A stretch of 64,000 nt of DNA from Candidatus Binatia bacterium (GTDB lineage: Bacteria > Desulfobacterota > Binatia > UBA9968): contig DASYRN010000045.1 of assembly GCA_036004365.1 (NCBI GenBank), forward strand, positions 7,637 through 71,636, in the 5' to 3' direction. The notes beneath the pieces are model-generated. The model saw nothing but the letters and a program-made list of their open reading frames with translations, was not told the origin of the DNA and made no database searches. Position 1 is the first letter of the stretch, and every line of letters starts with the position of its first letter. This document shows positions 16,625-36,152 of the stretch, piece by piece. Made by a program: the position numbers and the translations under genes.

Positions 16625-16715
16625 ACAACTAACGAACACGATCACAAATCACGATCCGCCTTTTGCTCTTTCGATTCTATCCTTTATCCTTCATCCTTTA
16701 TTCTTTTTCTTGGAG
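16625..16715. repeat. Reverse-orientation copies of both short-repeat families (…acgaacacgatcacaaatcacgatcc… then …cctttatccttcatcctttattc…)
   Basis: Direct reading; intergenic between the EcsC-like and GGCT genes. Confidence 0.55.
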
Positions 16716-16722
16716 GTAACCC

Positions 16723-17890: not shown

Positions 17891-17914
17891 CATGCCCTCC
17901 TTCAAGCAGCCTGC

Positions 17915-18010
17915 CTTATCCTTCATCCTTTATCTCTTATCTTTTTTTGCCACGAACACGTATCACGAACACGTTTTTTTCCGTTTTCCGCTTTCATCTT
18001 TCATAATTCC
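17915..18010. repeat. Reverse-orientation short-repeat block (ccttatccttcatcctttatc / cacgaacacgtatcacgaacacg / ccgctttcatctttcat)
   Basis: Direct reading; intergenic between the DUF5666 and lldD-like genes. Confidence 0.55.
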
Positions 18011-19524: not shown

Positions 19525-20058
19525 ATGATTCTTCACACCGCACTTACACAATTATCGGCTAATCAGTTCGTAGCCTTGATCTTGGATAACGAAGTGACGG
19601 TTGGCCATTTTGTTACAACTCCACCGCTACCCTGGACCCGTTTGACCCAGCGCAATGGAATCTACCAGGTCGCCAAAGGATATCCGTCTCTTTTGACGAC
19701 CGAGCAAGCCAAGTTCGAGATGAGAAACTGGGATGAGGTTTCGTTGCAGAGAATCATGGGCACGTTGAAAGAGCTGGATGACTCCGTGGATTATGTGCTC
19801 ATCGGAAACAATGCCGGCCAAGGGCTTCCGCTCGCTCAGAGCCTCCCGCAGAACTTAATCGGCAAGCACGCTGCGATCATCTACGGAGAGAGCCTTCCGG
19901 AAATAAAAGAATACGAGAAAACGGGTTATCGAACCTTCTTTCGGAGGAGCAAGGCTGCTTCCCGTCTGCTCGAGCTGACAAAGAGCGCGCGCCGACCTCT
20001 GGCCCTCTTCTTCATCAACACCATCCAACACAACGAGTTCAACTATCACGACCCGTAG
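19525..20058 (+). CDS. Hypothetical protein
   Basis: 178 aa from MILHTAL...; no recognisable motif; start uncertain (GTG at 19456 also possible). Confidence 0.4.
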   Translation: MILHTALTQLSANQFVALILDNEVTVGHFVTTPPLPWTRLTQRNGIYQVAKGYPSLLTTEQAKFEMRNWDEVSLQRIMGTLKELDDSVDYVLIGNNAGQGLPLAQSLPQNLIGKHAAIIYGESLPEIKEYEKTGYRTFFRRSKAASRLLELTKSARRPLALFFINTIQHNEFNYHDP

Positions 20059-20062
20059 TCAG

Positions 20063-20100
20063 AAAGGATGAGGGCGAAAGGATAAGGGATGAAAGTAAGT
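20063..20100. repeat. Purine-rich GGATGA-type repeat block (gaaaggatgagggcgaaaggataagggatgaaag)
   Basis: Immediately after the stop of the 19525-20058 ORF. Confidence 0.5.
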
Positions 20101-20155
20101 TAAAATCGAAAAGCGTGTCGGTTGTAAAGCTGGGAACGGTAAAGACACGACTAAC

Positions 20156-20794
20156 TCACAGTTTCGGAATCCGCAGGGTCTTACTAATCATGGCCGAACC
20201 GCTCACGAGATAGAGCAAGGAGAACGGGTGCCACTGCAGGGAGCCGATTTCGAAGACACCGAGTGGCAGATCGTCGCCGACGCGATCCATATGGAAGCAG
20301 AAAGCGAGCACAATAACGAGCACTAAACTGGAGGGAATTGGCGTTCCCTCGAAGTACTTTACTTTACCACCAAGGTCGGAAAATTCAGCCGCGGTGATGT
20401 TATACCGCGCTAGGCGGCTGATCCCGCAAACCACAAAGAATAAGAGGATAGGGACGTCTAGGCCACCGCGCATCCCCAATCCATAGGCGAGTGCCGTGGG
20501 TGCCACCCCGAAGCTCACAACATCCGCTAGCGAGTCGAGCTCCCCGCCGAAGCATGAATGCTTGTTGCGCCACCGGGCAACCCTGCCATCGGCCACATCC
20601 AATGCAAGAGCGAGCGGGAACAGCCCGACAGCCAAATAAACGCGCCAGCGGTCGGGCGTCACCAAGTAACTCATGATGGCAAAAATCGCCGCGGTTCCCA
20701 CGGCGCCGTTGCCAAGCGTGAGCAGATCCGCCACGTGATAACTGCGCAGCATGGAGAAGTGGACAGGCTTTTTTGGCGAAATGTCATGGTCCAT
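20156..20794 (-). CDS. pssA: CDP-alcohol phosphatidyltransferase (phosphatidylserine synthase-like)
   Basis: D-G-x2-A-R-x8-G-x3-D-x3-D signature present (DVADGRVARWRNKHSCFGGELDSLAD), polytopic membrane protein. Confidence 0.8.
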   Translation of the reverse strand: MDHDISPKKPVHFSMLRSYHVADLLTLGNGAVGTAAIFAIMSYLVTPDRWRVYLAVGLFPLALALDVADGRVARWRNKHSCFGGELDSLADVVSFGVAPTALAYGLGMRGGLDVPILLFFVVCGISRLARYNITAAEFSDLGGKVKYFEGTPIPSSLVLVIVLAFCFHMDRVGDDLPLGVFEIGSLQWHPFSLLYLVSGSAMISKTLRIPKL

Positions 20795-20929
20795 CCAATG
20801 ATCTCCTCTTGGTCTTTTGTGAATCCATAGGACTACGCCAGAGTCGAGAATTCCCGAAGGGTCGAAATGGACGTGCGCCTGTCTTTTGCTAAGCGGTAGC
20901 TAAGAGGCAGGAGAGAGAACGCGAGGGTA

Positions 20930-21244
20930 TTATTTTGATGCCTTCTCGAGTTCGGTTTCACCGGCAATGTAAAATTCACTCTCGCGAAGTTTGATCTGGT
21001 ACAAGGTTCTGCCTTTTCGATAAACATCATCGGACGCATGGGCGGGGAGTTGGCCCACAAACACACCGTCCTTGACCTCTCCCTTTAACGACGGATCATC
21101 CTTCCATCTGACAATGTCTCCTTTTTTAAAGGAAAAGAGAAAAGAAAAGGTCTCGTCAAGCCGCGGGTCGTCGATTTTTATAAAATCCATAACCGATATT
21201 GTGTGGGGTAAAAATTCCTTTGTCAAAGGGGATTCGCCTAGCAA
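20930..21244 (-). CDS. Hypothetical protein in an AT-richer patch
   Basis: 104 aa ORF, no recognisable domain; local GC clearly below the window average. Confidence 0.35.
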   Translation of the reverse strand: MLGESPLTKEFLPHTISVMDFIKIDDPRLDETFSFLFSFKKGDIVRWKDDPSLKGEVKDGVFVGQLPAHASDDVYRKGRTLYQIKLRESEFYIAGETELEKASK

Positions 21245-21290
21245 GAACCGCGGAATCAGCCATTAACGATCGCGCTGAATACGGCTGACA

Positions 21291-21310
21291 TTTGTTGAGA
21301 ATTCTTACGC
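21291..21310. repeat. Degenerate copy of the palindromic element (TTGTTGAGAATTCTTACG)
   Basis: Shares TGAGAATTCT; intergenic, upstream of pqiA. Confidence 0.4.
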
Positions 21311-21446
21311 ATTGGCCAGAATTGTCATTTTGGACGATCTTCGTTCCATTTAAACCACTATGAGTGCGATTCTTAACTTCACCCAAAAGACCGCAAATCC
21401 TTTAAAAAACCGCGTCTTGTGTTGCTAAGCTAAAGATTGGCATGGA

Positions 21447-22118
21447 TTGTGCTACATCTTTTCCGCTCTTGTGGGGGGTCGAAAGAGTAAAGCAGACCTC
21501 GAAATTTTAATGGAAACAATCATCGCCTGCAAAACGTGCGGCCTGGTGCAGCGCATGGAGGAAGTCCAGTCGGACATAGCGGCGGAGTGTTGTCGCTGTG
21601 GGTCGATCATCGGCAAGCTCAACGTCAACAGCCTCGCACGCACGGCAGCGTTCTCGCTAGCCGCGCTGATTCTTTACGTACCGGCCAATATCTATCCGAT
21701 TCTCCATATGAATTATTACGGCGTGTATTCCGAAAGCACTGTTTGGGACGGCTGCGTGAAACTCTTTCGGGACGGCCAGTGGCTGGTGGCCGTGATCGTT
21801 TTTCTCGCCAGTATTTTGATTCCACTTTTAAAACTGCTCGGGCTTTTCTATTTGGTCGTCAGCGCGAAATTCAAATCCGCGCGTCAGCAGCAGGAACGGA
21901 CTTGGATTTACAAGACCATCGAAGTGATCGGTCCATGGGCAATGCTCGACGTCTTCCTCCTCGCGGTGCTCGTGGCGTTGGTCAAGCTGCAGCAGATCGC
22001 TACCGTCCTCCCTGGTCGGGGGCTCTTGGCGTTCACCGCCATGGTGGTGTTGACTATTTTGGCTTCGGCCAGTTTTGACCCGAGGTTGATTTGGAACGAA
22101 ACGGATGAAGAGTCATGA
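21447..22118 (+). CDS. pqiA: Paraquat-inducible protein A family membrane protein (single PqiA domain)
   Basis: N-terminal CxxC...CxxC zinc-ribbon-like segment followed by PqiA-type TM helices; directly upstream of an MCE/PqiB gene. Confidence 0.75.
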   Translation: MCYIFSALVGGRKSKADLEILMETIIACKTCGLVQRMEEVQSDIAAECCRCGSIIGKLNVNSLARTAAFSLAALILYVPANIYPILHMNYYGVYSESTVWDGCVKLFRDGQWLVAVIVFLASILIPLLKLLGLFYLVVSAKFKSARQQQERTWIYKTIEVIGPWAMLDVFLLAVLVALVKLQQIATVLPGRGLLAFTAMVVLTILASASFDPRLIWNETDEES

Positions 22119-23032
22119 GCGATTTGCAAAAAAATGCTGAAACCACCGAAGAGTTGCCCAAGGCAAAGGTCAAGATAAAGAGATGGAACTTTCCCGTCGT
22201 CTGGATTGTTCCCGTGATTGCCGCCATTGTTACAGGCTATCTTGTTTACGATCGCGTGCAGGAGTTTGGTCCGAAGATCACGATCAGGTTCAAGAACGGC
22301 AGCGGCCTTAAGATCGGCCAAACACCAATTAAGTATCGCGGCGTGCAGATTGGCGAAGTGACGGCGGTTGAATTGAGCGACGACCAGCAGAACGTGCTGG
22401 TGAAGGTACGACTGCGCCGCTCGGCGGCTTCCATTGCCCGGGAAGGAGCGGTTTTCTGGATCGTGCGTCCCGAAATGGGACTTTCAAACATCGCTGCCTT
22501 GGGGACGGTCATTACCGGACCGGAGATTGCGGTATTGCCGGGCACTGGCAAGGACCAAGCAGAATTTGTGGGTCTGGAGAGTTCGCCGGTGGTAGTAGAA
22601 GGTAATGAGCTGAAGATCGTTCTGGTCTCCGGCCGTGCCGGGTCATTGATAGCGAGTTCGCCGGTTTACTATCGGGGCGTCGAGGTAGGCACCATCCAAG
22701 ATATTCAGCTCAACAACGACGCCCGCACGGTGAACATCCACGTGTTCATCAAGCAGCGGTATGCGAACCTGGTCCGGAGCAGCTCGAAGTTTTGGAATGT
22801 AAGTGGCGTGGATGTGAGCATCGGCTTGTTCCGCGGCATGGAAATCAATATGGAATCGCTGAGATCGCTGGCGGTCGGGGGAATCGCCTTTGCCACCCCG
22901 AACGATCCAAAAGGCAAGCCGGCGAAGGACGGGATGGTATTTCCCCTTCACGACAAATCGAATAAGGAATGGTTGGAGTGGGCGCCGAAGATACCGATTC
23001 CACGGGAGAAACAGTTAGAGAAGTCGAGATAA
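22115..23032 (+). CDS. pqiB: MCE-domain protein (PqiB/MlaD family)
   Basis: N-terminal TM anchor then MCE domain; 4 nt overlap with pqiA. Confidence 0.8.
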   Translation: MSDLQKNAETTEELPKAKVKIKRWNFPVVWIVPVIAAIVTGYLVYDRVQEFGPKITIRFKNGSGLKIGQTPIKYRGVQIGEVTAVELSDDQQNVLVKVRLRRSAASIAREGAVFWIVRPEMGLSNIAALGTVITGPEIAVLPGTGKDQAEFVGLESSPVVVEGNELKIVLVSGRAGSLIASSPVYYRGVEVGTIQDIQLNNDARTVNIHVFIKQRYANLVRSSSKFWNVSGVDVSIGLFRGMEINMESLRSLAVGGIAFATPNDPKGKPAKDGMVFPLHDKSNKEWLEWAPKIPIPREKQLEKSR

Positions 23033-23352
23033 GTTCGATTAGCGGCGGATCTGTGTCCAGCCTGATAGGACCTATTTCCCCTTGCGGTAACACAACACGC
23101 ACCGATTTTTTGCAGTCCTAATTCCTTGCACCTGGGTGAATATTACCCTTCTTGACAGCTTGATCTCTCTCAAATATCGTCAAGCTATCATTCTTCAAGA
23201 TTAGTATTCGGTGGTATGAGTGACGGCCGAATTTTTTTTGCTTTAGGACTGCATCGTAGGTGGTCAGTGGAAATTTCCGCGGATAGAAACGGCCGAAAAC
23301 AAAAAATGAGCAGAACAACGGAATCCACATTGAATTAGTTGAGGAGGTAAAA

Positions 23353-23604
23353 ATGCCACTTTTTATGGACATCCACAGGAAAGCAGACGGAATAACGTCC
23401 CAAGCGCTCGCCGAGGCACACCGTAAGGATCTTGCCGTGCAGGGAAAGCACGGCGTCAAGTTCGTCAACTACTGGTACAATGAAGGCGAGGGCGCGATTT
23501 TTTGTTTGTGCGAAGCTCCAAGTAAAGAGGCGGCTGAAGCGGTACATCGCGAGGCTCACGGTGAGTTAGCAGACGAAATCATCGAGGTTAAAGAGGGGTC
23601 GTAG
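23353..23604 (+). CDS. DUF4242 domain protein
   Basis: 83 aa, MPLFMDIHRK... typical DUF4242 start; strong RBS AGGAGGT. Confidence 0.7.
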   Translation: MPLFMDIHRKADGITSQALAEAHRKDLAVQGKHGVKFVNYWYNEGEGAIFCLCEAPSKEAAEAVHREAHGELADEIIEVKEGS

Positions 23605-23791
23605 CAAGCTGAGGGAGCCATGAAACGATCCGCAGGTTCTTCGATCACCCACAGAAAAGCGGTCAGCCCTTGAAAACATGAATTCTGCTTTGCTGAGGCT
23701 GCGCTGGCACGAGGCCGGTTGATCGAGTATCCGAGCATCCTGAATCGATTCCGGGTTTCCGAAGCCCTTCCCTGTTTCACCGCCGTTCAAC

Positions 23792-24025
23792 ATGACCCTT
23801 TGCAATCACACAACGCTCGAACTGTTACCTGAAAAGAAAAAAAGAGTGCGGTGCCGGCACTGCCACCTGATCCTAGACGGCGAGGAGCTGGGAGATGGCT
23901 ATTGCCCGGAATGTTTTGAGACGTCCGGCAAGAAGCAATATGACTTCGAGGATATGGAACCCGAAAGGGGAGGGGTCGCCCGCTACAGATGCGAAGAGTG
24001 CGGTGCCATCGTTGAAAGCGCGTAG
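23792..24025 (+). CDS. Small zinc-ribbon protein (two CxxC pairs plus CxxC)
   Basis: 77 aa with CRHCH...CPEC and CEEC motifs. Confidence 0.5.
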   Translation: MTLCNHTTLELLPEKKKRVRCRHCHLILDGEELGDGYCPECFETSGKKQYDFEDMEPERGGVARYRCEECGAIVESA

Positions 24026-24137
24026 TAAACTACTTGGCGCTACTGTGCCATTGAGTTTGTCTCGGACAAACTGTGATCAGGAGGACGGGTTCACAGATCA
24101 GTCAGGCAGCAAAAACCGCATGGCGAACAAGGATCAG

Positions 24138-24299
24138 TAGCTTTCCACCGGTGATTGGGGGCGGATCTCTCCTGTGATCGGATCTTCACCCTCAACAGGT
24201 GGCCCGCCTCGCTTTTTCTCTGCCTTGCGCTGCTGGCGGCGAGCGACCTTTTCTATTTGCTTCTGCCGGCGCGCCATCTCCTTCTGGCGTTTCATGTAA
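24138..24299 (-). CDS. Small basic protein (53 aa), not in the ORF track
   Basis: Hand translation of the minus strand: MKRQKEMARRQKQIEKVARRQQRKAEKKRGGPPVEGEDPITGEIRPQSPVESY. Basic N-terminal half, acidic C-terminal half; weak GGGAAA SD. Confidence 0.3.
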
Positions 24300-24383
24300 G
24301 TTTGATTTCCCATACGGATAGATTAACACATACCAAAGGCAACAGGAACCGCCTCTTCAAAGAAAGCCGCGTTAAAGTATAAA

Positions 24384-24415
24384 GGGGCGTACTGATCTAC
24401 GCCCCTTTTTGCTTA
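24384..24415. terminator. Bidirectional rho-independent terminator hairpin
   Basis: GGGGCGTA-ctgatc-TACGCCCC stem-loop followed by TTTTTG on the + strand, preceded by an A-rich run, so it can serve the minus-strand RRM gene ending at 24432. Confidence 0.55.
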
Positions 24416-24431
24416 GATTCTACAAGATAGG

Positions 24432-24746
24432 CTACCAGCGGTCGCGCCTGCCACCTCCACCGCCACCCCTTCTATCCCCACCGAACCCTGACCGCTTCTC
24501 CTGAGGCCGCGCCTCATTGACAGTGAGATTGCGCCCGTCGAACTCGGTTCCGTTCAGAGCCTGGATCGCTTTCTGGGCCTCCGCGCCGGAGCTCATCTCG
24601 ACAAAACCAAAGCCCTTGGACCGGCCGGTGAATTTGTCGGTGATCACCCGGGCGGATTCGACGGTGCCGTGCGCCGAGAATAGTTCCTCGAGCTGCTTGT
24701 CGGTGGTCGCGTAGGACAATCCACCTACGTAGACTTTATTCGTCAT
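24432..24746 (-). CDS. RRM-type RNA-binding protein with Gly/Arg-rich C-terminal tail
   Basis: RNP motifs VYVGGLSY and KGFGFVEM; RGG tail; AGGAGG RBS 5 nt upstream of ATG at 24746. Confidence 0.85.
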   Translation of the reverse strand: MTNKVYVGGLSYATTDKQLEELFSAHGTVESARVITDKFTGRSKGFGFVEMSSGAEAQKAIQALNGTEFDGRNLTVNEARPQEKRSGFGGDRRGGGGGGRRDRW

Positions 24747-25306
24747 GTTCTCCTCCTTTAGAAAAATGTTAGTGTCTTTCACCCTGGAATCTGATTACCG
24801 CGGGAGCAGAACATGGGGTTGGAACCCAGCGCTGGCCGGATTATCCTCCAAGGTAATACTTCGCAAGGAAAGACTCCCCCCGAGCCTTAAACTTTTATCT
24901 GTCTCACTTTCAGAAGGCCCCATACTGAAGTGACTTTAGCTTGTCTTGTTTGCCCTCTCGGTGCAACGGAGCCGGGCGCGTCCTTTATCGTGCAGACGAC
25001 GGCTCGACACGAGCCCAAGTCACTATCATTCTAGGGTCGTCCGACGCAAGAGGTAGGCGGCGCGCAAGAAAACGTTGGAACAGAATGCGCAAAGAGGCCA
25101 AGAGCTTTTTGAGCGATATAAAGGGGTGTAGGAAGCCTCCGATAGTGCCTATTAATGTCGTGTTAATGGAAGGGGAGGTTGGGTCCTCCAGGAACCAAGC
25201 ATGCTTTATGAAACGCGATCGTATCCTTTCGATGGTGGTCTCTGGGTCCGACCAGCACCTAAGGCGCATCGACTCCGGAAGAATTATTTTAACCAACCGG
25301 CGACCG

Positions 25307-25322
25307 TTTGAGAATTCTCAAG
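25307..25322. repeat. Copy of the TTGAGAATTCTCAA palindromic element (TTTGAGAATTCTCAAG)
   Basis: Perfect 14-bp palindrome in the long intergenic region between the RRM gene and the XRE regulator gene. Confidence 0.7.
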
Positions 25323-25613
25323 AAGGTCAAAATGAACAAACGCGTCAAAGATGACGTTTTTGCAATTGCGAGAGTACGAAAATGTGGTTTGAAGCCTGTC
25401 TAGCGGATCTTCTTTTATAAACGCAGTGGATGTCTGTCAAGTAGGAAAAAGGAAAAAAGGGGAGGATTTCCGAAATATCCAAAAAGCCGCGATCGTGGTC
25501 GTGAAATGTGATCAGGCAGCAGGCCGCGTTGGCGGAATAGCAAGGCAACCGATTTAATCGAGGTTTAAAAAAAAAGCTTGACAGCCCGCGCGACCGCGAT
25601 ATACCTAGGTCCC

Positions 25614-25901
25614 ATGACCGGCATGGAACTCATAAAGCTCAGAAAGCGACTGTCTATGACGCAAACCAGTCTCGCCCGCGCCGTCGGAATGAAGAGAAAA
25701 TCGGTCATTCTCATGGAGCGGGGAGAGGAGCCCATCTTAAGGACCACCGAGCTGTCGGTGAGGCTGCTGCTGCTGAAGAAGCAAGCTGCGAGGTTCGTAT
25801 TGCGGATAAAAGGGAGAAGACGCTATAGGCCCCGGCCGCGGCAAAACGGAGCTTCACTGTCAGAAATCTTGTCGCATCTTTCTACAGATAGACGGGAATA
25901 A
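25614..25901 (+). CDS. XRE-family helix-turn-helix transcriptional regulator
   Basis: LIKLRKRLSMTQTSLARAVGMKRKSVILMERGE is a Cro/C1-type HTH; start uncertain (25578/25614/25623). Confidence 0.5.
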   Translation: MTGMELIKLRKRLSMTQTSLARAVGMKRKSVILMERGEEPILRTTELSVRLLLLKKQAARFVLRIKGRRRYRPRPRQNGASLSEILSHLSTDRRE

Positions 25902-25989
25902 TCCTGACTGGCTTGAGGAGAAAAAAAAGAGACAGGCCATTTTTTCGTTGAAAACGGAAAGCTGACAACGGAAAAAGCTGCCAGCGTTT

Positions 25990-26229
25990 TCATTCCTTTC
26001 GGGCCTTTTCTCCACTTTCCCGTATTCTCTTACCGGCCTCTTTCATTGCCTCGCCGGCTTTTTCCATCGCTTGACCCGTTTGTTCCTTGGCCTTCTCCAT
26101 TGCTTGATCGACAGCCTTGCCCGTTTTTTCCATAGCACCTTTATCGTCTTCGGATTTTGAGCAGGAGCCCAAGGCAAGCGCAGACAGTCCGACGAGCAAT
26201 GCCAGGCACACGTTTTTGATCAGCTTCAT
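25990..26229 (-). CDS. Small lipoprotein with AMEKxG repeats
   Basis: Signal peptide with lipobox LALGSC; four repeats of the ...QAMEKAKE.../...EAMKEAGK... type; GGAGGG RBS. Confidence 0.55.
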   Translation of the reverse strand: MKLIKNVCLALLVGLSALALGSCSKSEDDKGAMEKTGKAVDQAMEKAKEQTGQAMEKAGEAMKEAGKRIRESGEKARKE

Positions 26230-26384
26230 TTGTCGGTTACCCTCCTCGTCCAAGTCTTAGTCTAATCCCTATAATAAAAACTCTTGGCACACAAGAAAGG
26301 TTTCTTGACAATCTGGAAGGTTGCGGAATGGGTTGGTTCTCTTAATGTCACAGGGGTTAAAATCCCGTCGGGATGCCACTGGCA

Positions 26385-26666
26385 TCAGTCGGATGCCTTT
26401 GGTTTCGGCGGCCCCGGATATCGGGTAGCAGCCTGGTTTGAAAAGCCATCTAATGCGGCGAGTTGACGCGCGAGGTCGAAGATGGTGTTCTCGATGGCCA
26501 TCCTGGAGGCCTCAATCTCATCGAGCGTTGATCGCGCTATCCCTACCGCTTCCACGAGCTTTACTCCCTCGGGCCGCCTTGCCAGTATCGTGAGACGGTA
26601 ATCGGCCTGGAAAACGCGCCAGTTGAGATAGACGCTTCGCACCTCAGCCTGTAGGTCTGAGGACAT
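26385..26666 (-). CDS. Hypothetical protein, possibly a remnant
   Basis: 93 aa ORF with no RBS and no recognisable domain; sits next to a degenerate region. Confidence 0.25.
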   Translation of the reverse strand: MSSDLQAEVRSVYLNWRVFQADYRLTILARRPEGVKLVEAVGIARSTLDEIEASRMAIENTIFDLARQLAALDGFSNQAATRYPGPPKPKASD

Positions 26667-27091
26667 ATACCGGATCGAAACGGGAGCAGCGGGATCGTCC
26701 TCCAGGACGTAGAAAAGCGCCCGGCCGACGTGGTACTCCCCCCACTTAACTCCGGAGTATCGACACTTCCCACAGCTCGGCGAGAGCCGGATCGACCTGC
26801 ACCTTTACCCTTCGCTCTGGCGGAAGCTGGTAGCGCTGGTCGAAGAGGACCGTTTGGCCTCAGGCGCCAAGCCCGAGCGAAAGGAAAAACAAAGTGAAAA
26901 GGGAGGTCTTGCTCATGAGACGATCTGCAATTTCTTAGCATCTCTCCTAAAAGAGTAAAAGCCCCCGCAAGATAAAGGATGAAGGATAAGGGAAAGATGC
27001 TCATAAGACAGCGGACTTTCGGGGCCGTTCAAAGAATTTTGCTGGTGGCCACATCGAAGCTGTGCTATGTTGGTATGAAATTTTGAGAGCG

Positions 27092-27793
27092 ATGCGAAAG
27101 ACAGGTTTTGCTGCGCGAGATTTTCTCTTCTCGTGCCGATTGATTGTTTTCTGCTTATTTTCTCTATCTTGCTCTATACCCCCGAAGATTCCCACAGTTG
27201 CCGATGAGCGGCTCGAGGCCATGGTTAGAAATGAGGCCTCCGAGATCATAGAAGTGACCCCGGATAAAGAGGAGCTTTCTCGGTATCAGATTTTTCTGTC
27301 AGCCTTTCCCCGGAAGGATATATTAGGAGTGAGTGTCGGGAACCGTCGTATTTATATCAGTTATGAGCTGGTACAACTCGCGTTCAACAGTCCCCGCTAT
27401 CGTTGGCTGCTGAGGCAGACCTTGGCCCACGAGATTGCGCATGAAATAGCGGGGCATGCGAAAGATAGGCGAGTTGTCTCCTACAGTCCTTTTACGTTCG
27501 GCCGCGGCGTGACAGGCGGAGATATCGGCCTTCCGTCGAGCGTGCGATTCCATCATTATTCGGCGGAAAAAGAACTGGAGGCGGATTTAAACGGAATGAA
27601 GTACTGGAGAAAGCTTCAGTGGGACTGCCGGATCTGGGTGCGCATCTTGAGGCAATATTTTCAGATCAACTACACGGGCGATATTTTTCATCCGACAGAC
27701 GAGCGCCTAAGACAAGCATTGAGCGTGTGCCTTCCAGAGTCAGATCCGGAGCGGATCGCTATAGAGAAGAGACTCGAGGCAGTGAGGAGGTAG
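27092..27793 (+). CDS. Putative secreted zinc metallopeptidase (HExxH motif)
   Basis: Hydrophobic N-terminal signal; LAHEIAHEIAGH contains HExxH; 233 aa. Confidence 0.55.
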   Translation: MRKTGFAARDFLFSCRLIVFCLFSLSCSIPPKIPTVADERLEAMVRNEASEIIEVTPDKEELSRYQIFLSAFPRKDILGVSVGNRRIYISYELVQLAFNSPRYRWLLRQTLAHEIAHEIAGHAKDRRVVSYSPFTFGRGVTGGDIGLPSSVRFHHYSAEKELEADLNGMKYWRKLQWDCRIWVRILRQYFQINYTGDIFHPTDERLRQALSVCLPESDPERIAIEKRLEAVRR

Positions 27794-27819
27794 GCAGGCC
27801 GATCTAAGAAAGGTACAAA

Positions 27820-27930
27820 GGCCCGTGCTCGTGATCGTGAAACGTCATCGTGACTAAAGACAAGGATGAAGTATAAGGGATGGAAGCAGAAAAAGAAGTG
27901 GACGTGATCGCGACTCGTGTGCGTGGAAAC
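27820..27930. repeat. Composite short-repeat block: CGTGATCGTGAA-type units flanking GGATGAAG/GGATAAGG purine-rich units
   Basis: cgtgctcgtgatcgtgaaacgtcatcgtgac ... aaggatgaagtataagggatggaag ... gacgtgatcgcgactcgtgtgcgtgg. Confidence 0.6.
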
Positions 27931-27952
27931 TTAGCAGACGCCTTGTGTGAGA

Positions 27953-28348
27953 TTATTGCTCTAAATCGGAAGCTCTCACCCAGCCGACAGCACCCGTCGA
28001 ACTCTTAACCATATACCACAGTCCGCTGCTACCAGCCGCCTTAGCCATTACTGTAAGCGTGTCTCCTCGCTCCAGTTTAGCGACGAGCGGTGAATACTCG
28101 TCCTGGCGGGCGTAGAGATGGACCTCGCTCTGCTTGACCGCGAGGAGAGCGGAGACCGGCGCCTGTGATCCTGCCGGAGCGTTGACGGAGTGTCTGTTTG
28201 CAGCAGGACTCCTCGTGTTTACCCCACGGCGGCTCTCCTTTAGAGCTCCGGTTTGTTTTCCGTATTCGAAGATGGCTTGAGCATCGCTTCTCTCGGCCAT
28301 AACCATGAAGAGCATGGGCACCCAAACCACGGCTAGCACGTGCTTCAT
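27953..28348 (-). CDS. Secreted SH3 (SH3b)-domain protein
   Basis: Signal peptide; C-terminal ...ARQDEYSPLVAKLERGDTLTVMAKAAGSSGLWYMVKSSTGAVGWVRASDLE is typical of a bacterial SH3 domain. Confidence 0.6.
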   Translation of the reverse strand: MKHVLAVVWVPMLFMVMAERSDAQAIFEYGKQTGALKESRRGVNTRSPAANRHSVNAPAGSQAPVSALLAVKQSEVHLYARQDEYSPLVAKLERGDTLTVMAKAAGSSGLWYMVKSSTGAVGWVRASDLEQ

Positions 28349-28379
28349 AGCCTCCCAATTATAGTCGCGAGAGAAGGTC

Positions 28380-28700
28380 GCCGCAATTCAGTGAGCGGCA
28401 CGGACAAGAGATGAGGGATGAATGATAAAAGATAACGGATGAAGGATCGAAGCGGAAAGAGGAAAAGAGAAAGAGAAAAAAGACCTGATCGGATTCGTGC
28501 TCGTCATCGTAAAGGAACAGCCTTGACACGTTTTCGGCCTTCGAATAGGTTAGTTTTGGCCAAGTCGTTGATCCTCAAGAGACGTGCACGTGTTCGAGAT
28601 TCGTGTTCGTGTAAACTTGCACGTTTTGAGAATTCTCAAAGCTTCGAAAAGCGCCACGATCGTCTTCGTGGAACGTGATCGTGAACAAGAACTGATGCTG
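28380..28700. repeat. Large composite short-repeat block (purine-rich GGATGA units, then several CGTG(A/T)TCGTG units) also holding a palindromic element copy
   Basis: gagatgagggatgaatgataaaagataacggatgaaggatcgaagcggaaagagg ... ttcgtgctcgtcatcgtaaagg ... cgtgttcgagattcgtgttcgtg ... cacgatcgtcttcgtggaacgtgatcgtgaac. Confidence 0.6.
28624..28639. repeat. Copy of the palindromic element (TTTGAGAATTCTCAAA, perfect 16-bp palindrome)
   Basis: Located between the SH3 gene and the S1/P1 nuclease gene, embedded in the CGTGATCGTGAA-type repeats. Confidence 0.7.
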
Positions 28701-28870
28701 TTATCACTTTTACGATTGCGCAAGTGCGCAAATGAGAAAATGTCCCAAGGCGCGAGCCTTGAGGTATGAGGACAAAAGGTGAGGATGATTCAGGAGGAAC
28801 GATAGCGGAACAAGGGAAAACGGCGGGGAGAAGAGGCTGGAGAGACCGGATAATTTTTTCTACGAGGAAG

Positions 28871-29686
28871 ATGGCGGCAACAAACCGCACCCGGAGAATT
28901 AAGGGAGTGGTTCGGGTCTGCGGGCTGTTCTTCCTGTACGATCTACTTGCTGTTTCCCCCGGTTTTTCCTGGCATGACAAAGGCCATCGCGTTGTGGCGA
29001 TCATCGCCCAGGCGAATCTCACCCCGGAGGCCAAAAAACGGATTCAGGAGATAGTACCTTCAGGCACCACTCTCGCCGACGCAGCCGTCTGGCCGGACTA
29101 CGAAGGGAGAAAAGTGGGAGATTTGGATCCGCTCCACTACGTCAGTATTTCCGACGGCGCCAACGGCTACGATCAAGCGCGTGACTGTCCGGAGAAAAAC
29201 TGTATGGTTGAAGCACTCAAGTGGTTTTCATCGAACATCGCCGACGAGAATGCCCCGACCGTCATGAGACGAATCGCTCTGCGGTATGTCGCGCATCTGG
29301 TCGGTGACCTGCACCAGCCGCTGCATGCGGGCAGGGCAACGGATCGAGGCGGCACGGATATCACGGTGACGTATAGAAGACAGACGACCAACCTGCACTT
29401 CTTTTGGGATAAAGACTTAGTGGAGATGGAAGAAGGAAACGCAGAGGAGGTAGCTGAGCGGCTTGGGGCGAGCCTTACTGAAGAGGAACGTCTTAAATGG
29501 CGGGCGGGCGACCCGAAACAATGGACTGATGAGTCGCTCGTGCTTGCAAGATCCTATGCGTACCCTATAGGGGGATCCTTTGAGCTTTCTGACGACTACG
29601 TAGAAAGGGCCCGACCGATTGTGCGAGTAAGGCTTGTTCAGGCTGGGATAAGATTAGCATGGTTGCTGAACATGGCTTTCAAATAG
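28871..29686 (+). CDS. S1/P1 nuclease family protein (secreted)
   Basis: WHDKGH near the mature N-terminus and HLVGDLHQPLHAG zinc-binding motifs; start set at the ATG after GAGGAAG. Confidence 0.85.
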   Translation: MAATNRTRRIKGVVRVCGLFFLYDLLAVSPGFSWHDKGHRVVAIIAQANLTPEAKKRIQEIVPSGTTLADAAVWPDYEGRKVGDLDPLHYVSISDGANGYDQARDCPEKNCMVEALKWFSSNIADENAPTVMRRIALRYVAHLVGDLHQPLHAGRATDRGGTDITVTYRRQTTNLHFFWDKDLVEMEEGNAEEVAERLGASLTEEERLKWRAGDPKQWTDESLVLARSYAYPIGGSFELSDDYVERARPIVRVRLVQAGIRLAWLLNMAFK

Positions 29687-29693
29687 GATTGTT

Positions 29694-30071
29694 ATGAAAC
29701 CGCACCTTGTGTCAGGGCTAGGGCTCTTGCTAGGGGTTCTTGCCGCAAAGAGCGCACCCGCCGCGATGTATTGCGGCGACACACTGATAGACAAAGGGAT
29801 GACGAAGCTGGACGTCATCTCAAAGTGTGGCCAGCCTGATTTACGGGAAGTGACCTCGCTAGTTTTCCAGGTAAGGGAGGTCTGGCACTATAACTGCGGC
29901 GAGGGCAGGCTGAACAGGAGCCTTGTCTTTGAGGGCGAGACGCTTGTATCGGTCCAGGAAAGCAAAGTTACGGCAGCGGCCCGGAGAAGTGCAAATAAAA
30001 CGGAACTAATAGCAAGGAAGCACGAGGCAGCGATACGCTTCATTCCCGGCCGGGATCGAGCTCAATGCTGA
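29694..30071 (+). CDS. DUF2845-like small secreted Cys-containing protein
   Basis: Signal peptide, then YCGDTLIDKGMTKLDVISKCGQP...WHYNCGEG pattern. Confidence 0.45.
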   Translation: MKPHLVSGLGLLLGVLAAKSAPAAMYCGDTLIDKGMTKLDVISKCGQPDLREVTSLVFQVREVWHYNCGEGRLNRSLVFEGETLVSVQESKVTAAARRSANKTELIARKHEAAIRFIPGRDRAQC

Positions 30072-30321
30072 TGAGCTCGTAGCGTTCCGAAGAATACTCT
30101 CCCCGTTGTCTCAGGCTTTCTCGACGTTGGCGGTCGAGCACGGCGTGGTCCTGGTGTATCCGCTGCTGTTGTTCGTCCTGCCTCTGTTCTCGAACCTGGA
30201 GAAGTTCACCGACGGGAGCACCAGCCCCTCGCTCAAGGCTACTACAACCGATAGGAGTCATTAGAAGAGTTACCGCAATCAACTCTATAGAGAGGTTCTT
30301 CGCGTAACCAAACCGAATCAT
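30040..30321 (-). CDS. Small putative lipoprotein
   Basis: GGAGGAGGA RBS 4 nt before the ATG; signal peptide with IGCSS lipobox; convergent 32 nt overlap with the previous gene. Confidence 0.45.
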   Translation of the reverse strand: MIRFGYAKNLSIELIAVTLLMTPIGCSSLERGAGAPVGELLQVREQRQDEQQQRIHQDHAVLDRQRRESLRQRGEYSSERYELISIELDPGRE

Positions 30322-30675
30322 AATCCTCCTCCTCGAGATTTTGGTGCAAGGGCTTTTGCCCGAGACAGCTGACGCGATGCAAGCGATATACCAAGGGCCA
30401 GAATAATTAAACCGTGGATTGTTAAAGGGATTGGAAGTTCGGCTCTTCTGACACGGTCCCTAATTGTTATGGAAAGGCCTAAATTGTACCGTCAAGTAAC
30501 TTGATCGTTGTCTAAGAGGAATGGGATCCTCGTCTTGATCTTGGATTCTTGAGCCAGGTCACCCGGTCTGCCATGTGTATCTTGGCGATCCAAGAAAGGG
30601 ACGAGGCAAGAGGTGATAGGCGATAGTTTTTAGTCGCTCTCGCAACTATTGTATATTATAACATGGCTCTCGCGT

Positions 30676-30691
30676 TTTGAGAATTCAAAAA
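30676..30691. repeat. Degenerate copy of the TTGAGAATTCTCAA palindromic element (TTTTGAGAATTCAAAA)
   Basis: Direct sequence comparison with copies at 25307, 28624 and 36153. Confidence 0.6.
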
Positions 30692-30746
30692 TGTAAAAAC
30701 GAGTTAATGATGGAATCTTGCCCTATACGATTGTAACATTGGATAG

Positions 30747-30895
30747 GACCGAATTGCCGGCTTGATGACTTCCTATGGATACGCGAATATTCTCCACGCC
30801 GGTTTCTGCGCCTTGGAGCTTCTTGAATGGGAAGTCGATCAGGTTTTGGGCGTTGGGCCTTTCACGTCCGCCGAATTGCGCGCCGATCGTTAGCA
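30747..30895 (+). pseudogene. Duplicated 3' fragment of the yciI-like gene (no start codon)
   Basis: Translates to RIAGLMTSYGYANILHAGFCALELLEWEVDQVLGVGPFTSAELRADR*. About 85% nt identity to 36021-36117, the 3' end of the intact yciI-like gene (…GFCAFELFEWEVHQVLGVGPFTSAELRAHR*). Confidence 0.6.
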
Positions 30896-30941
30896 GTTGG
30901 AGATTCACATCTTCGGCGGAAGATTTGAGAAGGAGGTATCC

Positions 30942-31031
30942 ATGTTGGCCATTCTTCCCCCGCTGATAATGATTCTTCTCGTAGCTCTTATTTTCTATCT
31001 TGCCTGGTGGGACGCTAACAGACGTAAGTAG
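30942..31031 (+). CDS. 29-aa hydrophobic small peptide (MLAILPPLIMILLVALIFYLAWWDANRRK), not in the ORF track
   Basis: AAGGAGG with a 5 nt spacer then ATG; single predicted TM helix and a basic C-terminus; lies just downstream of the yciI fragment. Confidence 0.4.
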   Translation: MLAILPPLIMILLVALIFYLAWWDANRRK

Positions 31032-31155
31032 AAGTAAAAAGGCGTTGGGACAGCCATTGTGCGTCGGGCAATTCAATCGGAGCTAACGTTGAGGACGCAA
31101 AGCAGCACAAAGTGGCCGAGTTTATCACCGAAGGTAAGACAAGAAAGGAGAATCT

Positions 31156-31605
31156 ATGCCGAGAGTGACTTCGTTGGGTCATGTAGGCCTTTACGTGGGC
31201 GACATTGAGCGTTCCAAGGCATTTTATCGGGATATCCTTGGCCTGAAGGTGAGCGACGAGAGTCCCAACAGGGGCGCAGTATTCATGACGGCCAAAGACC
31301 GGCTGGAAGAGCACCACGAGCTCCTGCTCATGCCGGGCCGAGAGGATGGCAAAGTCGTCCAGCAAGTTTCTTTCCGCTGTGCCAGCCTCGCCGATATCAA
31401 AGACTTTTACCGAGTTTTTTTGCAGAACAAAATCCCCATCAACCGCATCGTAAGCCACGGCAATGCTATAGGGATCTATTTTCAAGATCCCGACGGAAAC
31501 CAGATCGAAGTTTACTGGCCCACCGGCATCGACTGGCCCCAGCCCTTTGGGAAGCCGGTCGACCTGGCCGTAACCGACGAGGAGATCCTTGCGCAGCTGA
31601 CGTAG
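31156..31605 (+). CDS. VOC-family (glyoxalase / bleomycin-resistance / dioxygenase fold) protein
   Basis: LGHVGLYVGDIERSKAFYRDILGLKV signature; RBS AAGGAG. Confidence 0.8.
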   Translation: MPRVTSLGHVGLYVGDIERSKAFYRDILGLKVSDESPNRGAVFMTAKDRLEEHHELLLMPGREDGKVVQQVSFRCASLADIKDFYRVFLQNKIPINRIVSHGNAIGIYFQDPDGNQIEVYWPTGIDWPQPFGKPVDLAVTDEEILAQLT

Positions 31606-31636
31606 CCTGTAAGGCGGGCCTTAAAAAGTAAAAGCA

Positions 31637-32164
31637 ATGTCGAAACGACTGATTTTCCTCCCATGGATGTTGTCTCTACTTCTGCTACCGGCCTGCATCC
31701 ATGGCCTAACGATGCACTCCATGGACGGAGAGACCTTAAGCGGAAAGTATCGTTTCGCGCGCGAAGGCAAAGGATTGATCAAGGTCATCCGATCCGATGG
31801 CGAGGTCTTGACGGGCCATTTTGTGACGGTTGGGCCGAAGGCTTTTGTCGAGAGTTTCAAGAAGGCTTTCGGCAGCGGATCTATCGTTGTCTTCGGTCCC
31901 GATGCCTCCGCTTACGGAAATGCCTTCGGAGGCACCTTTGCAAGTGCGCACGGGACTGCAGGGGCTGCCTATGGCGAGACGTTCAATACCGGCTCCGGTC
32001 AATCCACAACCGTGGTGACCGGGCCGCGTTTTTACTGGACGGCATTCCTTCAGGGCAGTGGAGGAACAACGATGGCATGTTTTTTCATCGGCTCCTCGTA
32101 TACGGGTCACGGATTTGGAAGATGTAAGAGCAACATGGGGAAGGAGTATAGTGTAGAGTTTTAA
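31637..32164 (+). CDS. Gly/Ala/Thr-rich lipoprotein of unknown function
   Basis: Lipobox LLLPAC; low-complexity G/A/T/S-rich middle; 175 aa. Confidence 0.55.
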   Translation: MSKRLIFLPWMLSLLLLPACIHGLTMHSMDGETLSGKYRFAREGKGLIKVIRSDGEVLTGHFVTVGPKAFVESFKKAFGSGSIVVFGPDASAYGNAFGGTFASAHGTAGAAYGETFNTGSGQSTTVVTGPRFYWTAFLQGSGGTTMACFFIGSSYTGHGFGRCKSNMGKEYSVEF

Positions 32165-32472
32165 GATCTCTAGTCTTTTTTCAGAGGTCAAAATAAATAG
32201 TAGATGAGCGTGCTCGATCCTGCCATTGTCTCACGTTTGCGTGATTGCGACGAAGAAACAGTGGCCTGTCGGCCCGGATATCTGAGCGGTCGGGGACGGA
32301 TACTCCTCCTGCGTTGTCTCTAACCGAATTTCCGGAGAGTTGTTCATAATTGTCATATTGGACGGTTTCGGTCCACTTACCACGAGCCCTTATTCGACTT
32401 GTGAGCGGGAAATCCTTTTTAAAAACCACATATTGTATTGATAGGCCAAAATAAGGGCCTTTGGCATGAATT

Positions 32473-33954
32473 ATGAATCTTATCCACTATATAGGCCCAT
32501 CTATCTTAAGAGAGCGATCCCTTATGCGAGACGTCGCAATAGCAACCGAGGCAGCATCACTTTCCAAGGAATGTCCTGGATGTGGCGCTCTCCTGGAACT
32601 GACTCTCGAGGCGTGCTGGAAATGCGGCGGAAAAGTCGAACCGGATATTCCCACAGCGCCGTACGAAGAGAAACGACCCTTCAAGCCCTATCTAGACAGA
32701 AGCGCCGACCTTGGAAGAGAGGTCTACGAACGGCTTATCCAAGCCTTTTCAGAAGTGAATCCCCGCGAAAGACCCTGGTGTGGCATAGGGGTTAAAGCTG
32801 ACCTTCTCGCGGTATCACCAAGATCCGTGACAGTCGCGGTGATAAAGGAGCTGAGCGGGGTCAAGAAAGGCCTCGTTCATGTCTCGCAGAATTGGCGGGA
32901 ACCTTGGCAGGTAGAAACCGTCGATAGGGAGAAACATCAGATACGAAGCAATCCTTGCGAGCAGGCGGAGCGGGCGATCAGCGCTGTCAAAAGTAGTCTC
33001 AAGTCTTTTCTCAAGGCCAATGAGCAGGCTGTATTCCCGCGCATAAAGTGTTTAATCGTTTTCCCCGATGGATACGACTTTGAAGGGCCAAAGGATTTTT
33101 CCATGCTCGACCACGACGGGGTGATCACGCTGAGTCTACTAAACTTTCGTGATTTACCGGATGCGATATTACGACCGACGGACCACGAAGGACTGGATTC
33201 CCGGCAGTACAGGAAATGGATTGAAGAACTTCTAAGGAGCAACGATGAGTCCACCCTCGGGACATGGCTTGATCCGGCCTTCGATAAGCCGGAGCCGGAG
33301 CCGCCCAAGAGACAGCTCTGGCGGTTACGTTATCCGCGCCGCCGAAAAGTGCCGGCAAAGGAAGAGGAACTCTCTTGGTCAAATAGTCCGCGAAAGAGAT
33401 CGGTCCAGGCGAAATTGAAGGGGACTCGACTCAAATTTACCGTGACGGTTATCACGGGTATGCTCGTTGGAATGGTCGGATGGCAAATGTATAGTGTTGG
33501 GGAACATACCGCGCCGCCTCCACGCGCGGAAACTACCCCTGAAGTCACTCAAGCGGTGCCACCCCAAGATGTCCCGTTGTCAACGGAACTCGAGAAGGAG
33601 GAGATATTGCCTCCGCCGCAGCCAGTAGAATCCCGCGAACCGCAGGCGCCTATAGCGCCGAAAGAGGATCAACCCATCAAAGGCGCGAATAAATCTGAGG
33701 TCACCCGCACTCAGGCTCCTGGCGATTTAGAGCTCAAGCGGCAGAAGGTGGAACTCAAGATCCATGATGCTATTCTCCGTCGCGCGATCACCGGTGTGAC
33801 GGTTTACTTCGCCGGGGACACGGCTTACCTCCGCGGCCAGGTCGAGACCGAAAACCAAAAATCTGCTGCCGAAAAGGCCGCGAGGAGCGTCCCGGGGGTT
33901 AAGGAAATCCGCAATTCAATTGAGGTCAATCCCCCATCCCCTGCGGATGGCTAG
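32473..33954 (+). CDS. Zinc-ribbon / NERD-domain / single-TM / C-terminal BON-domain protein
   Basis: CPGCG...CWKCG zinc ribbon; NERD-like core (ADLLAVSPRSVTVAVIKELSG..., NPCEQAERAISAVKSSL, IKCLIVFPDG); TM helix LKFTVTVITGMLVGMVGWQMY; Pro/Glu-rich linker; BON-like C-terminus (VTVYFAGDTAYLRGQVETENQKSAAEKAARSVPGVKEIRNSIEV). The true start may be Met at 32524. Confidence 0.7.
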   Translation: MNLIHYIGPSILRERSLMRDVAIATEAASLSKECPGCGALLELTLEACWKCGGKVEPDIPTAPYEEKRPFKPYLDRSADLGREVYERLIQAFSEVNPRERPWCGIGVKADLLAVSPRSVTVAVIKELSGVKKGLVHVSQNWREPWQVETVDREKHQIRSNPCEQAERAISAVKSSLKSFLKANEQAVFPRIKCLIVFPDGYDFEGPKDFSMLDHDGVITLSLLNFRDLPDAILRPTDHEGLDSRQYRKWIEELLRSNDESTLGTWLDPAFDKPEPEPPKRQLWRLRYPRRRKVPAKEEELSWSNSPRKRSVQAKLKGTRLKFTVTVITGMLVGMVGWQMYSVGEHTAPPPRAETTPEVTQAVPPQDVPLSTELEKEEILPPPQPVESREPQAPIAPKEDQPIKGANKSEVTRTQAPGDLELKRQKVELKIHDAILRRAITGVTVYFAGDTAYLRGQVETENQKSAAEKAARSVPGVKEIRNSIEVNPPSPADG

Positions 33955-34030
33955 CCTGATGACGGCCAGATAACACTTCGCTTTTCCTTCAGATCAAAGT
34001 AAAGAGCAGCGAGCGTCCGCTGACTGTCCC

Positions 34031-34486: not shown

Positions 34487-34514
34487 TAAGATATGTTCGT
34501 GACGCCGCGCTGGG

Positions 34515-34772
34515 CTATCGGCGGGGTCGGGCGAGCCTCATCGCTTGCTCAATGGTGGGAATGATCTCGGGGCAACATTGCCTGGCGATTTCGAGAATGA
34601 TGCGCGCTTGGTTCTGGTCACAGGGGATCGTGTAGCCTTTAAAAAATACGCCCTCAAACGAATGATCAATTCGCGTGGCCTTGGCAATGGCCTCATAGGC
34701 GGGAGACTCAACGGGAATTCGACTCCGCAGTCGGTCAAAGTGTGGAGGAGCGACCTTAATGAATATCTCCAT
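34515..34772 (-). CDS. Hypothetical 85-aa protein in an operon with the kinase and phosphatase
   Basis: ORF 28 nt upstream of the kinase gene; no recognisable motif; C-terminal CCPEIIP. Confidence 0.4.
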   Translation of the reverse strand: MEIFIKVAPPHFDRLRSRIPVESPAYEAIAKATRIDHSFEGVFFKGYTIPCDQNQARIILEIARQCCPEIIPTIEQAMRLARPRR

Positions 34773-36117: not shown

Positions 36118-36152
36118 CGGTCTACAAGGAGCTCAGAAGAGCACTTTCACCG

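Follow-up and report, generated by a model that had tools for sequence, protein, structure and literature searches.

Binatia (Binatota) are abundant uncultured soil bacteria that, to our knowledge, are represented by metagenome assemblies only. Here we analyse a palindromic repeat found in a stretch of 64,000 nucleotides (nt) from a Candidatus Binatia bacterium (contig DASYRN010000045.1, positions 7,637 to 71,636 of the forward strand), which we call the window and whose positions are used throughout. The window has a G+C content of around 54% and encodes a Rho protein that is 100% identical to an NCBI protein of a Candidatus Binatia bacterium and whose nearest relatives (94–96% identity) come from metagenome-assembled genomes classified as Binatia or ‘Deltaproteobacteria’. 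Copies of the repeat lie in the surroundings of genes for an RRM-domain RNA-binding protein, an XRE-family regulator, an S1/P1 nuclease, YciI, a pyruvoyl arginine decarboxylase (PvlArgDC) and DinB.

Palindromic units in the window

The exact 14-mer TTGAGAATTCTCAA occurs three times in the window, at 25308-25321, 28626-28639 and 36154-36167. When up to two mismatches are allowed, the number of sites rises to five, with near-copies at 21295 and 30677, against 0.28 expected, and none of 100 shuffles reached that number. The degenerate core TTYGRGAATTCYCRAA has six sites against 0.53 expected, adding those at 51960 and 20843. An original prediction, made by reading the window alone, had described perfect palindromes of 14–16 bp. 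The 14-mer is indeed perfect at three sites, whereas a perfect 16-mer exists only at 28625-28640, the other two exact-core copies being TTTGAGAATTCTCAAG; the coordinates 28624-28639 given for that palindrome were shifted by 1–2 nt. The predicted core variant with a one-base deletion at 30676-30691 is present, and so is one of two proposed degenerate relatives, at 51960-51975 (TTCGGGAATTCTCGAA); the other, at 21291-21310, is a half-core that our family model does not recover. Four members of the family had been overlooked, at 20828-20873, 25343-25388, 28701-28746 and 40337-40382.

Combining a covariance model and a hidden Markov model (used with nhmmer), both built from 95 units, with inspection by eye, we count nine units in the window. 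All are intergenic, as had been proposed; this was confirmed with the genes called on metagenome contigs that have the same sequence as the window. The contigs of the source population (L001-L007), being 99.8–100% identical to the window, gave no comparative signal. The units, whose two ends are called A and B, and one doubtful site are the following:

20828-20873, minus strand: chimeric core TTCGGGAATTCTCGA, A end CCATTTCGAC intact, B end decayed (nhmmer E=2e-4)
25292-25337, minus strand: exact core TTGAGAATTCTCAA, A end TCATTTTGAC intact, B end decayed (nhmmer E=2e-3)
25343-25388, minus strand: weak unit of the CGCAATTGC sub-family, identified by eye from core, spacing and arrangement
28610-28655, minus strand: exact core, sole perfect 16-mer, B end GTGCAAGT intact (covariance model 39.6 bits, E=8e-8)
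28701-28746, minus strand: weak unit of the GCGCA(A/C)TTGCGC sub-family (covariance model 16 bits, E=0.09)
30661-30705, minus strand: degenerate, core minus one base (covariance model 14.1 bits)
36138-36182, minus strand: exact core (covariance model 28.4 bits)
40337-40382, minus strand: divergent core TTCGAAAATAGTCGAA, arms intact (covariance model 34.6 bits, E=1.6e-6)
51945-51990, plus strand: TCATTTCGAC-AT-TTCGGGAATTCTCGAA-GC-ATGGAAG (covariance model 46.5 bits, E=1.4e-9)
21295-21308, no strand assigned: doubtful half-core TTGAGAATTCTTAC with 2 mismatches, arms not recognisable, recovered by neither family model

The best full-length copy, 51945-51990, lies in a divergent region, 102 nt upstream of dinB. 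The unit at 20828-20873, which matches the copy at 51949 at 92%, is located 57 nt past the stop of a small minus-strand open reading frame (ORF) and 34 nt before the start of the CDP-alcohol phosphatidyltransferase gene. The site of the original finding, 25292-25337, has a weak hairpin (-11 kcal/mol) and forms a co-oriented dimer with 25343-25388, their centres being 51 nt apart; the latter unit was recovered by neither the covariance model nor nhmmer, and the same type and spacing are seen in locus L144. The unit at 28610-28655 occupies the divergent region between an SH3-domain gene and the S1/P1 nuclease gene, and 28701-28746 (hairpin -13.1 kcal/mol, z=-2.7) is co-oriented with it, 91 nt away. 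The degenerate unit at 30661-30705 lies about 45–90 nt from a truncated yciI fragment. The unit at 36138-36182 is placed between convergent genes in the sense orientation of the PvlArgDC gene, at 19 nt past its stop by one count and at 33–52 nt by another, and 40337-40382 (-14.3 kcal/mol, z=-4.7) in a divergent intergenic region. Every window copy carries the word TCRAAA 3–5 nt off the core on one side and a TTkCAC-like word on the other.

Distribution across genomes

A scan for the core plus TCRAAA in one genome per species (185,579 species) returned 69 loci. Fifty-eight of them are on Binatia-type contigs from about 30 assemblies and have both flanks conserved, so that the comparison with related genomes suggested by the original prediction shows this unit, together with its flanks, to be present in about 30 further assemblies of Binatia. 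The other 11 matches, in archaea, Bacteroidota and other groups, had been considered as possible spread across phyla; they have no conserved flanks and look like chance matches. These 69 motif-derived loci, together with 80 loci chosen via PvlArgDC, make up the 149 fetched loci on which the comparisons below are based. Strong units number 143 in the motif-derived loci and 13 in the 465 kb of protein-chosen, unbiased loci, that is, about one per 36 kb.

Two contigs assigned to other groups, L154 (DASPXM010000036.1, binned as Verrucomicrobiia) and L164 (DASQUN010000147.1, Udaeobacter), also carry canonical Binatia units. The one protein of L154 that was tested, an aldo/keto reductase, is about 91% identical to proteins named Binatia by their sources, and thus this contig is probably mis-binned. 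Judging from these sequence comparisons, the repeat family looks confined to Binatia. A phage origin was rejected, the 24-mer consensus being unmatched in 2.9 million viral contigs, where the bare 15-mer occurs at chance level. In Rfam, the window gave no match at the gathering score and no unit was overlapped at E<=5, nor was there a match at E<=1 in three unit-rich loci. The literature searched contained no trace of the repeat sequences, the sole string match being an unrelated primer, and no paper that joins Binatia with terms for repetitive extragenic palindromic (REP) sequences.

Architecture of the unit and its sub-families

The original prediction had anticipated that the repeat reaches past the palindrome, and this is the case; its size of 14–16 nt does not stand, because the palindrome is the core of an imperfectly palindromic, polar unit of about 40 nt. 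The oriented consensus is nnnTCATTTYGAC-GT-TTYGRGAATTCYCRAA-AC-GTGRAAGT (as a continuous string, nnnTCATTTYGACGTTTYGRGAATTCYCRAAACGTGRAAGT). Each unit comprises two nested inverted repeats, an outer one (TTTYGAC and GTGRAAG) and an inner one (GTTTYGRG and CYCRAAAC), with a fixed AATT between the inner arms. The symmetry spans about 34 nt, the inner part shows an 11-6-11 geometry around GAATTC, and the stem has around 15 bp in two tiers. The outer arm contains a conserved G.G mismatch and a T.G pair, which make the unit polar. The identity of around 29 nt that had been noted between 25302-25331 and 36148-36177 was confirmed by comparing the copies; it represents a derived variant common to the units 25292-25337 and 36138-36182.

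Six or more core sub-families exist. Some differ by compensatory core changes (GAGAATTCTC, GGGAATTCCC, CGCAATTGCG, GACAATTGTC and CCGGAATTCCGG), and sister units with the same arms and different self-complementary cores (TCGGGAATTCCCGA, TCGAGAATTCTCGA, TTCGCAATTGCGAA, TCGACAATTGTCGA and TCCGGAATTCCGGA) are found in the same loci. Cores that mix half-sites also exist, for example TTCGAGAATTCCCGAA. Long AATT-centred palindromes number 104 in the motif-derived loci and none in shuffled sequence. Across the 95 units, the 15 predicted pairs have 90.6% of cells paired, a percentage that is inflated because the seeds were picked for palindromy. Cells changed on both sides amount to 124 compared with 46.5 in shuffles, slid controls being far lower, and pair counts are, for example, 58:35 for UA/CG, 67:26 for AU/GC and 61:15 for GC/CG. 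All the same, the compensatory sub-families can be read plainly from the raw sequences. Canonical units fold with -20 to -30 kcal/mol (z -5 to -7).

Placement, orientation and arrays

Placement was analysed with crude ORF calls. Whether spacers are tandem, divergent or convergent, the number of strong units in them roughly follows spacer length, without depletion from divergent ones, and the apparent intragenic units fall within short, probably spurious ORFs. In tandem spacers, 39 of the 49 units are co-oriented with the genes (p=4e-5), 16 of the 49 lie no more than 30 nt from the upstream stop, and the sense units have a median relative position of 0.25 from that stop (p=0.007). Distances to downstream starts are spread over -27 to 833 nt, and no position is preferred. 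GC skew of the 8-kb loci, compared with unit orientation, was uninformative about a replication-strand bias.

Units also form arrays. Adjacent units up to 150 nt apart are co-oriented 15:0 under a strand-confident filter, which requires the scores of the two strands to differ by 5 or more; a looser filter admits two weakly oriented -+ pairs, in L167 and L276, and units within one locus are co-oriented 55:4. Their spacings are discrete (41–43, 50–52 and 60–62 nt, head-to-tail), and mosaics use in addition a fixed spacing of 104 nt. Multi-unit mosaics with conserved linkers recur on separate contigs and in separate genomes. One of them, of about 270 nt, combines three or four units of different kinds, always in the same order and at 62/104/51 nt (L176 4309-4520, L152 3987-4247, L182 and L145); it may represent a composite element or an RNA with several hairpins.

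The sense orientation and the proximity to stop codons fit a transcribed 3′ hairpin. Are the units then primarily factor-independent transcription terminators? The strong hairpin of canonical copies would suit this function, as would the finding that canonical terminator-like sites are not enriched in window 20001-40000 (30 compared with 23.8 ± 5.3 in shuffled sequence). Nevertheless, the stem is not followed by a U tract, whichever way the unit is read, and the consensus flanks have no T run; a canonical intrinsic terminator was rejected on this ground. The inner stem, moreover, is A/U-rich, many copies are in divergent regions, arrays of two to four units would be superfluous for termination, and the conservation of the primary sequence would go unexplained. 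We therefore hold termination as the primary role to be very unlikely.

The original prediction had also suggested that a dimeric factor uses the palindrome as its operator, and had named the adjacent XRE regulator (25614-25901) as a candidate. The palindromic core and the copies upstream of the XRE, S1/P1 nuclease and dinB genes would be compatible with such an operator, or with an SOS-like box for dinB, the nuclease gene and others. Indeed, operators of helix-turn-helix proteins (XRE, LexA-type boxes) share with the unit a dyad core of 14–16 bp and, for some copies, a location in divergent promoter regions. They differ from it in that the Binatia symmetry extends over some 34 nt and the units stand in head-to-tail arrays, behind stops and between convergent genes, show no preference for starts, their distances to them being unpatterned, and have no co-occurring regulator. 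The XRE domain call is below the Pfam threshold, the 149 loci, with or without units, yielded no XRE homologue, and the orthologous dinB of L210 is not preceded by a unit. The operator proposal is thus left unsupported, and we reject both the XRE operator and the SOS box as extremely improbable.

Three further candidates were discarded. The ATG that follows the unit (GTCRAAATGA) is not a start codon, since the downstream frames are short and unrelated. A sigma-70 promoter is at odds with the hexamer spacings and with the scattered distances to downstream starts, -35/-10 matches (TTCTCA as -35) being at chance level and present in just two window copies. Finally, the outer arms TTTCACGT...ACGTGAAA resemble parS/NBS half-sites, but a distance of about 18 nt separates them and the A arm is different.

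Variants, indels and breakpoints

The PvlArgDC site allows orthologous positions to be compared. The unit behind this gene is recognisable by eye in about half of the sequence groups among related loci, and the downstream neighbour varies. Its hairpin reaches -25 kcal/mol in L272 and about -14 kcal/mol in L223, L129 and L250, and is decayed elsewhere. Homologues of yciI and HU were not found in the related PvlArgDC loci. Two assembly groups have genome-specific arm variants, with CT...AG in place of GT...AC; together with the derived variant common to two window copies, these variants point to copying or conversion within genomes.

Units are also unstable between close relatives. Compared with L236 and L276, L242 and L262 have 98 additional nt, in the middle of which lies a unit (L242 2074-2171); terminal repeats or a duplication are not obvious in this insertion. 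L201 (at 2528) and L204 (at 4285) are 99.8% identical over 2.5 kb and unrelated from the unit centre on, and L248 (at 3224) and L246 (at 5164) are 99.7% identical over 3.2 kb and break at the unit end. Past the break, the sequence of L201 does not resemble a unit, and hence the two contigs share no repeat that could account for a mis-join there. Of the 144 internal homology breakpoints, 8 are no farther than 30 nt from the centre of a unit, compared with 0.76% expected (p=2e-5, an enrichment of about 7-fold).

This enrichment, seen between near-identical strains, bears out in part the suggestion of a recombination hotspot in the original prediction; the duplication of yciI, whose association with the palindrome had been said to fit that suggestion, is not shown to be mediated by units. 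The duplicated 3′ fragment itself is real: 30798-30897 is 87% identical to 36022-36121. The truncated duplicate (30747-30897) retains only the last 35–48 codons or so of the intact gene (35809-36117), with 87% DNA identity over 100 nt, and a 117-aa ORF called opposite to it is probably spurious. The unit near the truncated copy is on the other side of the fragment than at the intact gene, the two yciI-linked units thereby flanking the homologous segment on opposite sides, and we consider the link between yciI and the units weak.

Breakpoints at units raise the question of whether these are crossover sites of site-specific recombination, either integron attC-like or Xer/dif-like, that bound small mobile cassettes. 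PIN, ORF6N, ParE and ArsR are the families met most often in the 125 ORFs situated up to 400 nt from units, and the neighbours are enriched in toxin-antitoxin and defence genes (PIN 5, ParE 3, AbiE, GmrSD). In L176, co-oriented units stand between successive small accessory genes that share one strand (ArsR, antitoxin plus PIN, NERD, CopG and RRM). As in attC sites and in clusters of attC sites lacking integron integrases (CALIN), the unit has nested inverted repeats with a conserved mismatch, and in some loci co-oriented copies separate small accessory or toxin-antitoxin genes. The 11-6-11 inner geometry around GAATTC and the divergence of near-identical strains at the unit centre (L201/L204) or edge (L248/L246) would likewise suit a crossover site. 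However, the attC R′′/R′ consensus RYYYAAC/GTTRRRY is not matched by the Binatia arms TTTYGAC/GTGRAAG, in which the core triplets AAC...GTT are absent, and attC sites measure at least 57 nt compared with about 40 nt here, so that the unit does not belong to the attC sites. Two or three units often share a spacer, and units are dispersed beside core genes such as PvlArgDC and dinB, a distribution that would lead to a scrambled chromosome if the sites were active in recombination; around the window units, gene orientation is mixed. No integrase was seen in the sampled loci, no transposase or integrase is among the 25 listed of 93 neighbour families, and a search with an XerD query, a weak test, detected no tyrosine recombinase in about 0.97 Mb of loci. 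On balance, a crossover site is distinctly unlikely.

A probable REP/BIME-like repeat family

What kind of element are these units? We consider it probable that they constitute a family of Binatia-specific extragenic repeats similar to REP sequences and to bacterial interspersed mosaic elements (BIMEs), since they are short, extragenic and present in many copies, fall into sub-families with genome-specific variants, tend to lie near 3′ ends, assemble into mosaics and are unstable between strains. Of the three readings offered by the original prediction, a palindrome resembling REPs or miniature inverted-repeat transposable elements (MITEs) is the one best supported by the multi-copy and intergenic character of the units, their hairpins and compensatory sub-families, the genome-specific variants, the mosaics and the strain indels. 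REPs, BIMEs and REPINs of Enterobacteria and Pseudomonas are likewise short (20–40 nt) imperfect extragenic palindromes in tens to hundreds of copies, with sub-families coexisting in one genome and genome-specific variants; they too are found mostly near the 3′ end of the upstream ORF and in mosaic clusters with conserved linkers. In the broad sense, then, the Binatia unit is a REP: a stem-loop palindrome, albeit weaker in the window copies, that is multi-copy and extragenic. MITE-like repeats (Correia/NEMIS, ERIC, RUP, BOX) are also intergenic, multi-copy, foldable and polymorphic between strains by indels, but they measure 100–150 bp or more and have inverted repeats at their termini as well as target-site duplications, whereas the Binatia module has 40 nt.

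Several points weigh against this interpretation. In the GTAG/CGTC-tagged REP super-families, an unpaired tag stands at one end of an 8–9-bp stem, and head-tail (HT) dimers have been described as negligible (Di Nocera et al. 2013, PMC3733652). The Binatia unit has no terminal GTAG/CGTC, its GACG/CGTC being internal and paired; its stem has some 15 bp in two tiers instead of 8–9 bp; and whereas a REPIN is an inverted pair, neighbouring Binatia units are head-to-tail, without exception among the 15 strand-confident pairs. Lacking the tag, and with such long stems and head-to-tail dimers, the units fail to qualify as canonical REPs or REPINs, from which they also differ by the fixed AATT centre and by not being depleted from divergent spacers. 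In addition, G.U and A.C mismatches are equally frequent (37 and 42, no asymmetry), so palindromy could be selected at the DNA level and selection on a sense RNA is not favoured. In most of the window copies the arms are decayed and folding is no stronger than in shuffles, which makes the window a worn version of the family, and about half of the window copies are in divergent promoter regions. The 14-nt core has remained perfect in three window copies despite drifted arms, which would also fit a protein-binding core. In REPIN systems, moreover, a single-copy gene for a Y1/HUH transposase is flanked by the repeats; a phmmer search with IS200 and IS608 TnpA queries in about 0.97 Mb of loci, a weak test, gave nothing below E=0.07. 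Lastly, breakpoints at repeats in metagenome assemblies can be artefacts, and the statistics rest on crude ORF calls, motif-found loci and non-independent copies.

Some of these points lead to the alternative that the units are duplex DNA sites of an abundant lineage-specific protein, be it a nucleoid-associated protein, an insulator or a set of paralogous dimeric factors. There would be one paralogue for each sub-family core, and palindromy would reflect the symmetry of a dimer and no hairpin. It would account for the better conservation of the 14–16-nt core than of the arms, in the window as well as at the orthologous PvlArgDC site, for the symmetric G.U and A.C mismatches, as duplex DNA predicts, for half-site-mixed cores such as TTCGAGAATTCCCGAA and for the many window copies in divergent promoter regions; genes for ArsR-type and ORF6N DNA-binding proteins are, moreover, recurrent neighbours. 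The compensatory changes, on the other hand, extend over about 15 positions per arm, beyond a usual half-site, and the head-to-tail arrays at 41–62 nt, the positions right behind stops and between convergent genes, the orientation bias with transcription and the coincidence of indels and breakpoints with units are not what protein sites would lead one to expect; no candidate protein co-occurs consistently. Binding sites of this kind are accordingly rather unlikely in our view.

Returning to REP/BIME-like repeats, a putative trans-acting enzyme would recognise the hairpin, and units would be copied or homogenised within genomes. When a unit is transcribed as part of a 3′ untranslated region, its hairpin of -20 to -30 kcal/mol might act as a 3′-end barrier or pause, as with REPs. 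Most of the window copies would then be decayed relics, and a specific regulation of the adjacent genes by them is unlikely. We give only little credence to a bolder proposal, in which the units are recognition sites of an undescribed Binatia-specific system rather than passive REP-like relics. One possibility under it is that a recombinase or HUH enzyme shuffles small cassettes of toxin-antitoxin and defence genes between co-oriented boundary units, much as in integrons but with a new two-tier site of about 40 nt; another possibility is that an abundant protein reads AATT-centred palindromes, thereby organising the chromosome or insulating transcription units.

The repeat family is of practical consequence for work on Binatia. 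It explains in part why Binatia assemblies are fragmented and seem chimeric, and it can serve as a lineage marker to flag mis-binned contigs, such as the ‘Verrucomicrobiia’ contig L154. It also cautions annotators not to take palindromes of this type as operators. From the biological point of view, REP-like behaviour without the tag, without inverted dimers and, so far, without a REP-associated tyrosine transposase (RAYT) is unusual, and the strain-level breakpoints in toxin-antitoxin surroundings offer a tractable case for studying how tagless extragenic palindromes originate and are maintained.

Further repeats and genes around the units

A small RRM-domain RNA-binding gene adjoins units both in the window (24432-24782) and in L176 (7035-7349). 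The two proteins share 69% amino-acid identity, and the position and orientation of the units relative to the gene differ between the two loci.

Other repeated sequences accompany the units. Directly 5′ of the unit A end, a conserved G+C-rich hairpin, CCTGAGGCGCC-N4-GGTGCCTCAGG, followed by CTGATTG, was observed in L159, L172, L185, L187 and L195; it adds another module to the intergenic mosaic. Unit B ends are flanked by short tandem words such as CGTGATCGTG / CACGAACACGA in the window and in L159, L138, L171, L184 and L187. A second repeat family, ATCCTTCATCCTTTATC-like and pyrimidine-rich on the sense strand, occurs just 5′ of gene starts, and its members adjoin palindromic units in other Binatia loci (L193, L169 and L176 4537-4575). 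The positions of the two types in the window are:

14548-14591, 16669-16720, 17914-17959, 26969-26997, 28408-28447 and 44458-44516: ATCCTTCATCCTTTATC-like repeats
25489-25514, 27825-27850, 28575-28610, 28656-28690 and 61603-61628: CGTGATCGTG / CACGAACACGA tandem words

Finally, the window contains a 50-nt inverted repeat with 82% complementarity, at 56075-56124 and 63885-63934, whose arms, 7.8 kb apart, may be the ends of a larger element.

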